A stretch of 64,000 bases of DNA, taken from sequence record OQ540978.1; one strand, given 5' to 3'. This document shows positions 51,268 through 52,193 of the stretch, piece after piece. A model generated the notes under the pieces. That model did not search any database, was not told where the DNA came from, and was given only the letters and a program-made list of their open reading frames with translations. The DNA comes from Escherichia phage pEC-N1203-2Af.1. Position 1 is the stretch's first letter; each line of letters opens with the position of its first letter. Position numbers and translations under genes: made by a program.

Positions 51268-51359
51268 GAGCGTACTCACTAGGCAAATCACCGCTTAAGT
51301 GAAAAGCGAAACAACGGCTTACAGTTGCGTAGCGTGAGAAAGCACGCTGACAGATTTAC

Positions 51360-51373
51360 CGCTCTTTAATAAT
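51360..51373 (+). promoter_or_regulatory. boxA-like element (in P3 transcript)
   Basis: CGCTCTTTAATAAT about 85 nt downstream of P3. Confidence 0.45.
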
Positions 51374-52193
51374 TTAAACATTCTCATATATCGGTTGAAT
51401 ATGCTGGAAGATAATAACCATCGGAAAGCATACCAGATAAAACGGCGTAAGGCTCCCTAAAACATCAGGGTAAACAGTTTTACAATCCCTTAACTGGAAA
51501 CGTCACCACTGATAAGCGGATTCATTGAGTACACGCAACGGTTTAAGCTAATCGCCCACGGTTAAGGGTAGCGGCGGCCATCGCTAACACGGTGCTACAG
51601 TGAAAGAAACTAATCAGGGCAGACAAGTCCGACGAATTAACGCCCAATTGAGGGCGGCGGGGGATGGTTAAAGGGTAGCAAATTGCTATTTAACAATAAG
51701 GTTTAGTGTGAACGTTTACGATGCGAACGGCTTGAGATTCGTCTTATGATGAAAGTACATAGTCGGTTTATGTAGTAAACTTGCCGAAAGATATAAAACG
51801 CCGGAATGTTAGGCGGTTAGTGACTTTTTCGCAATAGTATCCCATAGTGGGCGATGACTAGCGAAAGAGAGCTGATACAAAAGGATAGGCGGGAGCGAAA
51901 GCAAAGTAAACGATATTGCCGATGGTTACAGCAATGTAATTAAATTGAATCGGACGCACTGCCTTATTGTGATGATTGATCATCGCTATCAGGTCGGCTT
52001 CGTTTATAGCGACTAATTAAAGATACCAGATGAAACATCACGGATAAGGGAGCGGCAAGGTTAACTCCTGATAAGACCGCTCCGCTTATCAATATTTACT
52101 TAACATTGAGTGGATATTGATAAGTCAATAATGGCTTAAAAGGCTCATAGCGAGCGGGGGCAATAGTGCCCTTACAATTGAAAGGTGAATATC

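Follow-up and report, generated by a model that had tools for sequence, protein, structure and literature searches.

What a phage with a tightly packed genome keeps in some 900 bp between an array of promoters and its first early gene is the question raised by positions 51268-52193 of Escherichia phage pEC-N1203-2Af.1 (sequence record OQ540978.1), analyzed here as a single stretch of 64,000 nucleotides, hereafter the window. A sequence-only reading of the window had noticed that this region lacks open reading frames (ORFs), and had suggested that it might encode a structured non-coding RNA, serve as a long regulatory leader, or hold DNA sites such as an origin. The explanation that we regard as probable is that the host polymerase transcribes from it a boxA-led, conserved and structured RNA of about 0.9 kb that is functional in itself, followed by the gene for gp124. 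This transcript would measure approximately 900 nt, from a likely start near 51274 to its last hairpin at 52172, with a core of about 810 nt downstream of boxA. The RNA is divided into three domains, of which two are closed by long-range helices, and it constitutes a new family of large structured phage RNA that is apparently unannotated.

The window is a Kuravirus (phiEco32-like) coliphage. Megablast places the region among the phiEco32-like E. coli podoviruses of the Gordonclarkvirinae (Kuravirus, Suseptimavirus, Nieuwekanaalvirus), where it matches 97 phage records, NJ01 being the best at 94%, and in a protein search the product of the downstream gene is 100% identical to one of Escherichia phage pEC-N1203-2Af.1. 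The lack of ORFs was confirmed: none of 60 codons or more occurs on either strand between 51292 and 52171, and these 880 bp are the longest such stretch in the window. The second longest is the adjoining promoter array (50344-51087), separated from the first by a 67-aa minus-strand ORF, and all remaining ORF-free gaps are 579 bp or shorter. By itself the ORF-freeness is weak evidence, because 29% of shuffled versions of the region also have no ORF of at least 60 aa; the longest ORF actually present encodes 42 aa, and 98% of the shuffles contain a longer one. The region had also been described as GC-richer than its surroundings, which is correct in direction and marginal in size (0.429; the window has 0.420, the promoter array 0.395 and the 2 kb that follow 0.416).

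Comparison with related phages provides stronger evidence. The region is present at full length in all 97 related records (73-97% identity), and in an alignment of 16 sequences its conservation equals that of the flanking genes, with gaps nearly absent; the promoter array upstream, the most indel-rich part of the locus among relatives, is riddled with insertions and deletions. Diversity by phase is flat in the region (0.138/0.153/0.136) compared with gp124 (0.112/0.073/0.331), and amounts to less than half of that at gp124 third codon positions. The indels that do occur in the region include changes of a single nucleotide, so that neither its longest ORF, nor the phase pattern, which lacks 3-periodicity, nor its tolerance of frame changes fits a protein-coding sequence. 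The region is under selection, yet non-coding. At the homologous place the phiEco32 annotation has a 1.9-kb gap between genes 125 and 124 in which nothing is annotated, and other public records leave the locus empty or fill it with 'hypothetical proteins' of 30-55 aa, mostly on the opposite strand and varying from record to record. MZ234028.1 (1464-3054) and JX867715.1 (1921-2088), for example, carry 'hypothetical proteins' of 29-49 aa over the promoter array and the RNA, many of them on the minus strand, and the annotation of the promoter array in public records includes a 55-aa 'cathepsin L-like cysteine proteinase A'. These small proteins are almost certainly over-annotation.

Covariation identifies the molecule on which this selection acts. 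RNAalifold applied to 15 Kuravirus-type sequences predicts 241 pairs, 79 of which contain compensatory double substitutions. In an independent count on a 279-pair version of the structure, 97.8% of cells are paired, a figure that falls to 35-47% if the 3' partner is shifted by 1-3 columns, and 81 of the 279 pairs are compensatory, with both sides changed, compared to 5-12 in these slid controls; none of 500 shuffles matches the observed values of pairing and compensation. The fold comprises about 40 helices and is more stable on the + strand, both for the alignment (-455, versus -381 on the - strand) and for the single sequence (-282.7 versus -239.2 kcal/mol; minimum free energy z-score -5.8). 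G-U pairs are frequent, as are pairs in which G-U alternates with A-U or G-C; together with the better + strand energy, this indicates that the molecule under constraint is the + strand transcript, which is also the one that the promoters would yield. With compensatory pairs well beyond the controls on the transcribed strand, the region is a structured non-coding RNA. Covariation and conservation across related phages, both named as checks in the sequence-only reading, thus came out strongly in favor of its proposal of a structured RNA or long leader, as did the lack of a coding signal and the retention of the fold in the distant relatives described below.

The Kuravirus sequences of the region are mosaics of a few allelic segments. 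EK010 and Bas88, for instance, carry an NC-B/TH-type allele in the 3' domain and the common allele elsewhere, and complete hairpins have been swapped among cultured phages (e.g. 51733-51758) with pairing kept, which indicates frequent recombination within the RNA gene.

From 5' to 3', the RNA is arranged as three small hairpins, boxA, domain 1, an invariant hairpin, domain 2, a further invariant hairpin, a 3' series of hairpins, and then the ribosome binding site and ATG of gp124 at 52194 (Table 1). Domain 1 contains the invariant loops ACGGUUAA (51558) and AAUUGA (51646), and domain 2 has inner multi-helix junctions rich in covarying pairs. No helix of the RNA is better supported than a 15-bp hairpin at 52084-52125, in which CTTATC (52085-52090) pairs with the GATAAG downstream of it (52119-52124). 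Two inverted repeats had been singled out from the sequence, AGCGTG/CACGCT near 51340 and GATAAG/CTTATC near 52060; both exist and the former covaries, while the latter had been assigned the wrong partner, an upstream GATAAG that lies in a conserved loop. Across the RNA, invariant loops and junction strands (ACGGUUAA, CAAUUG, UAUGUAGUAA, AGCGAA and CCUGAUAAG) are set among helices that vary freely around them, a pattern typical of RNAs with tertiary contacts or bound partners.

Several smaller features of the RNA were also considered. A gp36-type promoter as the source of the invariant UAUGUAGUAA was rejected, there being no match with one mismatch or fewer to the gp36-dependent promoter consensus tAATGTAtA (PMC8948821) inside 51268-52193. 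A 13-nt inverted repeat (51415-51427/51916-51928) was likewise discarded as a helix, as it is uncompensated in divergent relatives and both of its arms belong to supported local helices. The 14-nt motif AUACCAGAU(A/G)AAAC, invariant in Kuravirus relatives, occurs twice (51430-51443 and 52023-52036) in differing structural contexts and may be a repeated binding site. Finally, RNAalifold predicts that a GAGCGG near the 3' end can alternatively pair with the CCGCUC of boxA.

More distant relatives were sought through a protein search with gp124, in contigs assembled from public sequencing runs. The gp124 homologues found there form a group B (67-69% identity) and a group C (47-49%), neither of which has a cultured representative in the phage collection. 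Nine distant loci were compared and all nine have the same layout, with a stretch without any called gene upstream of the gp124 homologue (approximately 3 kb in the five loci with a full 4-kb flank, 1.4 kb in two, and reaching the contig end in two). A sequence profile of the Kuravirus RNA (nhmmer) is matched along most of its extent by four of these loci (E between 5e-21 and 4e-110). When the Kuravirus structure is projected on a MAFFT alignment of 22 sequences, 85.9% of cells are paired and 173 pairs are compensated, compared to about 38% and 81-102, respectively, after sliding; when RNAalifold is given only the group B sequences, 114 of the 279 pairs reappear at identical positions, a number that rises to 153 if a shift of one column is allowed, and both domain-closing helices are among those recovered.

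Further evidence for homology is provided by a covariance model of the 3' domain (R1; 51985-52128). Although built from Kuravirus sequences only, it detects a single full-length copy per locus in all nine distant loci, at the expected position (E from 1.5e-8 to 7e-23). R1 has no second copy in the window and none in Salmonella phage 7-11, and in the R1-guided alignment of the three phage groups 30 of 39 pairs are compensated with 94.2% of cells paired. The architecture of the RNA is therefore kept in distant relatives. A scan of viral contigs for the RNA returned known Kuravirus genomes only, and the motifs common to the three groups lack the length or the constant spacing that a specific pattern scan would need. 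Salmonella phage 7-11, a remote phiEco32-like phage, has about 1 kb of non-coding sequence upstream of its first early gene, and no boxA at its early-gene leader.

How so long an untranslated leader comes to be transcribed would be explained by a motif whose identity the sequence-only reading had overlooked. The sequence recurring after each promoter, CCGCTCTTTAA(A/C/T)AAT, is a match to boxA of the type found in E. coli rRNA operons (rrn). The gamma-proteobacterial boxA consensus, GYTCTTTAANA (PMC5725501), has five perfect + strand matches within about 700 bp (50668-51371), every copy lying downstream of a sigma-70 consensus promoter on the same strand, and eight matches in the whole window, compared to 0.67 expected and a count reached in none of 100 shuffles. 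Between three and six copies are present in each of the 18 Kuravirus-type loci. In the window, 833 ORF-free nt separate the last copy from the gp124 start, and boxA stands 870-936 nt before the gp124 start in all nine distant loci, for an overall range of 833-936 nt among relatives. The boxB-like hairpin preceding this copy is itself conserved as a structure: its arms (51331-51336 and 51343-51348) take five different sequences among relatives and covary, with compensatory change in three of the six pairs and 100% pairing.

In groups A and B the boxA element reads ACTGCTCTTTAACAATTTA, which is a 19-nt identity with the E. coli rrn leader, where the copy of ACTGCTCTTTAACAATTTA upstream of a 16S gene likewise comes directly after a hairpin; similarity between the locus and the E. 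coli leader is limited to this boxA segment. The order in the window, boxB-like hairpin then boxA, is that of rrn and not of lambda, and a lambda-type nut site was rejected on this ground and because no hairpin with an N-type loop follows boxA. By consensus, location, rrn-like context and conservation, the element is, as judged from sequence, an rrn-type boxA. Protection of long untranslated RNA from Rho by boxA has been documented for rRNA and CRISPR arrays (PMC7665894). Since a leader with 0.9-1.7 kb of untranslated RNA would normally be Rho-prone, boxA would account for its transcription, and Rho resistance is probably conferred through these copies.

A further boxA-like sequence, GCUAUUUAACAAU at 51685-51701, lies inside the RNA between domains 1 and 2 and begins in the 3' arm of the hairpin at 51673-51691. 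This sequence (GCUAUUUAACAAUAAGG) shares 88% identity with boxA copy 4 and has A where the consensus has C at position 4; its UUUAA.AAU is kept in each of the three phage groups, and the domain 2 closing helix is formed by its 3' half. The placement recalls the second boxA of the 16S-23S spacer.

The promoter array reported upstream of the region held up at the level of consensus matches, two promoters agreeing with the sigma-70 consensus at every position and the proximal one at all but one (Table 1). Four sigma-70 early promoters have been reported at the start of the early cluster of phiEco32 (PMC8948821), and together with the consensus matches this statement suggests that the promoters in the window are used, with a start of transcription probably near 51274. 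On the + strand, no terminator-like site occurs in 50440-53115, and hence none between the array and gp124 or between the RNA and gp124, nor is there in this interval a terminator hairpin with U-tract that could make the leader a transcription attenuator. Given this continuity and the strong terminator-like hairpin at 53116, the promoters, boxA, RNA and gp124 look like one unit. This terminator may also set the RNA and gp124 apart from the other early genes as a unit of their own, unless Nus-modified polymerase reads through it. Within the array, an exact 80-nt tandem duplication (50667-50746 = 50886-50965, 219 nt apart) comprises boxA, an UP-like A-tract and a consensus promoter. As a clue to function gp124 itself was of no help: it has a Pfam match below threshold only, belongs to a PHROG of unknown function, and has no relative among solved structures; its low-confidence AlphaFold model (pLDDT 65) is mostly helical with a long C-terminal helix, and Foldseek against the PDB returned nothing below E = 0.6.

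Table 1. Coordinates of the features of the locus, in order along the window.
Feature	Position	Strand	Remarks
Intrinsic-terminator-like hairpin	50417..50439	+	ends upstream gene cluster; left boundary of control region
boxA copy 1 (GCTCTTTAAAA)	50668..50678	+	part of 80-nt promoter-boxA module
Sigma-70 promoter, TTGACA-16-TATAAT	50715..50742	+	12/12 consensus
boxA copy 2	50887..50897	+	in exact 80-nt module duplicate 50886-50965
Sigma-70 promoter, duplicate of the one at 50715	50934..50961	+	12/12 consensus
boxA copy 3	50995..51005	+	
boxA copy 4 (GCTCTTTAACA)	51123..51133	+	invariant in 15 aligned relatives
Proximal sigma-70 promoter, TTGACA-17-CATAAT	51239..51267	+	11/12 consensus; invariant in relatives
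boxB-like hairpin AGCGUG-AGAAAG-CACGCU	51331..51348	+	12 nt upstream of boxA copy 5
boxA copy 5 (GCTCTTTAATA)	51361..51371	+	5' edge of fold
Domain 1	51373..51672	+	closed by long-range helix 51373-51386 / 51658-51672
Invariant hairpin GGGUAGCA-AAU-UGCUAUUU	51673..51691	+	
Domain 2	51693..51970	+	16-bp (10+6) long-range closing helix, AACAAUAAGGU...GCCUUAUUGU
Invariant hairpin GAUGA-UUGA-UCAUC	51971..51984	+	
3' domain, four consecutive hairpins	51985..52128	+	covered by covariance model R1
Two terminal hairpins, GCUC-AUAGC-GAGC region and GGGC-AAUAGU-GCCC	52131..52172	+	
Shine-Dalgarno (AAAGG) and ATG of gp124	52181..52196	+	
gp124 homologue, 299 aa, PHROG 13018, function unknown	52194..53093	+	always directly downstream of RNA
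Strong intrinsic-terminator-like hairpin (12 bp, T-tract)	53116..53143	+	right after gp124

The RNA belongs to no family that we could match. A search of 51268-52193 against Rfam 15, which the sequence-only reading had likewise proposed, returned nothing at E <= 1; the best matches at E up to 10 score 15-20 bits, compared to thresholds of 34-70, and this covers searches both of the whole window and of the region by itself under lax filter settings. The families without a match include GOLLD, ROOL, OLE, HEARO, raiA, group I and II introns, RNase P, 6S, tmRNA, riboswitches and leaders. Six distant loci were searched as well and gave no match at E <= 1 in the segment homologous to the RNA; their six sub-threshold matches all fall outside that segment, two of them at upstream boxA modules. 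Nothing resembling the RNA was found in 5,426 E. coli genomes, and the region contains no tRNA-like element. It also has no DnaA-box match and no iterons, its direct repeats being boxA and one 14-nt pair only; a replication origin or cluster of DNA sites, the third possibility raised from the sequence, is accordingly not supported, GC content not being low and the constraint being strand-specific and acting on the transcript.

We propose the following course of events. Host sigma-70 RNA polymerase would transcribe the RNA in the first minutes of infection from the tandem strong promoters, and the nascent boxA would recruit NusB-NusE(S10) together with NusA, NusG and SuhB. The elongation complex modified in this way would resist Rho, which would otherwise terminate transcription on the 0.9-1.7 kb of untranslated RNA, and the Nus complex may also aid co-transcriptional folding, as in rRNA synthesis. 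Transcription would then run on without a terminator into gp124 and stop at the hairpin at 53116, the RNA possibly being released from the gp124 mRNA at the long 3' hairpin (52084-52125). As a working guess, the RNA would bind a protein of the host or the phage during takeover, serving as its scaffold or decoy. Its size, long-range helices and invariant loops argue for the RNA as a functional molecule in itself, and we infer that it is not a mere spacer.

Confidence in this explanation must be tempered by several considerations. The ends of the transcript and the early abundance of the RNA are presumed, and Nus-factor binding at the boxA copies is predicted from the sequence match. Five copies exceed what antitermination needs. 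Because of the mosaicism of the Kuravirus sequences, compensated cells are not independent events, which is mitigated by replication of the result in the distant groups. Part of domain 1, its 5' half, is not alignable in the most distant relatives (70-80% paired there) and may be variable. The helix between boxA and the 3' end is invariant within Kuravirus and ambiguous elsewhere, with several alternative partners in distant relatives and a competing local hairpin that covaries. In the literature on phiEco32, Kuravirus and Gordonclarkvirinae we found no report of boxA or of a structured or non-coding RNA, and an earlier mention in Savalia 2008 or Pavlova 2012 is possible. A purely cis-acting role as 5' untranslated region of gp124 is also possible.

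In that last alternative the region would be no more than the leader of the gp124 or early mRNA, protecting it from RNases and from Rho loading and tuning gp124 translation, with no discrete product and no function in trans. The continuity of the RNA with the gp124 Shine-Dalgarno and the constant adjacency of the two would be expected, boxA is itself a cis element, and the RNA is purine-rich and C-poor (C/G 0.74) and hence a poor Rho substrate. We nonetheless consider this unlikely, because a fold of at least 800 nt with two domains closed at long range goes far beyond the need of known stabilizing leaders, and its loop and junction sequences are invariant even where the neighboring protein is less than 50% identical. 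Moreover, the Shine-Dalgarno region is not consistently sequestered in relatives (helix 6 is only 76% paired) and Rfam contains no riboswitch or leader family that matches.

A long, structured and untranslated transcript from strong promoters could alternatively act as a replication pre-primer or origin-activating RNA by analogy with ColE1 RNA II or transcription-activated phage origins, its fold controlling R-loop formation. A G-run at 51653-51663 would suit such a role, and no identified origin of these phages turned up in the literature, but with neither DnaA boxes, iterons nor an AT-rich unwinding element in the region, and nothing tying it to replication genes, we judge this very improbable; in phiEco32, furthermore, gp79 shuts off early sigma-70 transcription (PMC8948821), whereas the replication genes are middle genes. 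That the conservation might reflect double-stranded DNA function (protein sites, packaging or end signals) or small unannotated proteins, rather than RNA structure, has next to no probability. The 'hypothetical proteins' of 30-50 aa annotated across the region in some records, and its location no more than a few kb from where the genome ends in phiEco32 coordinates, might be taken to favor it, but those ORFs lie on the minus strand and are not the same from record to record, codon periodicity is absent and single-nucleotide indels are tolerated. Compensatory changes keep pairing that includes many G-U pairs, which are A-C on the other strand, the + strand folds better, and apart from boxA the region has no repeated DNA motifs.

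The functional RNA that we favor may also be given a more specific form, which we hold only tentatively and think rather doubtful as a whole: the phage may carry a mimic of an rRNA operon. Its promoters and five boxA copies would load NusB/E, NusA/G, SuhB and S4, yielding a very abundant folded RNA within minutes; this RNA would assemble with itself, in the manner of ROOL and GOLLD, or with host or phage proteins, of which gp124 is the obvious candidate, for takeover or counter-defense, and the boxA array would titrate Nus factors away from host rRNA synthesis. If true, this would make the RNA the first large ornate one from a virulent E. coli phage to be functionally tractable.

Three features elsewhere in the window or in its relatives were noted. 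Uncultured relatives have a second conserved non-coding block, AT-rich and about 450-700 bp long, upstream of the first boxA and absent from the window (L024:1800-2520, L026:2050-2800 and L028:1900-2590 in three contigs, and homologues of these); it contains near-invariant segments, repeated TGTTAA and TTGACA-N17-TATAAAT promoters, and looks like a DNA-level control region or origin and not a folded RNA. Another non-coding stretch of the window, 48060-48545, lies at the switch between leftward and rightward gene clusters, contains (T/C)(T/A)CCCGT at least seven times, shows a strong change of GC skew near 48.3 kb, and may be a genome-end or regulatory region; nearby, 47957-48039 is the sole piece of the upstream region that also matches distant relatives. 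A tRNA-Arg (anticodon TCT) at 58867-58941, among early and middle genes, is the sole match in the window at the Rfam gathering level.

The RNA would be the first product of phage transcription, and its conservation is stricter than that of most early proteins. Large structured RNAs of unknown function are rare and occur mostly in organisms that are hard to handle; this one is in common and easily grown E. coli phages, so that the family is experimentally testable in E. coli. Members of the Kuravirus group in the BASEL collection plate on K-12 with restored O-antigen and are reported to be highly resistant to the defense systems tested (PMC11990801). If our explanation is true, it provides a direct experimental handle on the role of a phage-encoded large RNA, accounts for the 1.9-kb 'empty' gap in the phiEco32 annotation and for the spurious small ORFs in other records, and adds use by a lytic phage to an rrn-type boxA formerly tied to rRNA, CRISPR arrays and a few host genes.

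Several known systems can be compared with the locus. The rrn antitermination complex protects untranslated RNA and assists its folding. Like the phage locus, the leader of an E. coli rRNA operon has tandem strong sigma-70 promoters, a hairpin and then boxA, and a long untranslated structured RNA, with boxA core and flanks identical over up to 19 nt. The logic of Rho protection of untranslated RNA (PMC7665894), combined with aid in folding, would be shared as well. The phage RNA differs in having no rRNA similarity, no boxC-like element and five boxA copies, one per promoter, and its transcript would continue into a protein gene; a leader-trailer helix is only predicted in the phage. Outside rRNA, a consensus boxA likewise precedes a long transcript that is not translated, or a regulated gene, in boxA-led CRISPR arrays and the suhB 5' untranslated region (PMC7665894, PMC5725501). 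Those are host loci, whereas here a lytic phage has five copies and a dedicated folded RNA.

Among phage systems, the lambda nut sites and the HK022 put RNAs are also signals in early-transcript RNA that make host polymerase resistant to termination, and lambda uses boxA to do so. Lambda boxA is a weaker variant and is followed by boxB, with N protein, whereas the boxA of the window is a full consensus match and comes after the hairpin; no N-like protein was identified for the phage, no search aimed at one having been made; put RNAs are about 70 nt long, compared to more than 800 nt for the phage RNA. GOLLD and ROOL are large ornate RNAs of approximately 600-900 nt with a multi-domain fold backed by covariation, are associated with phages or prophages, and have no known function. 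The RNA described here shares their size class, multi-domain fold and phage association, and differs from them in having no Rfam match, in occurring in E. coli podoviruses, and in its fixed position at the head of an early operon behind boxA. The early leader of T7 has promoters A1-A3 and an untranslated leader with an RNase III site before gene 0.3. It resembles the present locus in its tandem strong host-type promoters at the leading part of the genome and its untranslated leader before the first early gene, and by analogy the long hairpin at 52084-52125, just upstream of gp124, is a candidate processing site; the leader of the present phage is several times longer and has a conserved multi-domain fold. 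The closest analogues are the rRNA operon for the expression cassette, boxA-led CRISPR arrays, GOLLD and ROOL for size and ornateness, and the T7 leader for position.

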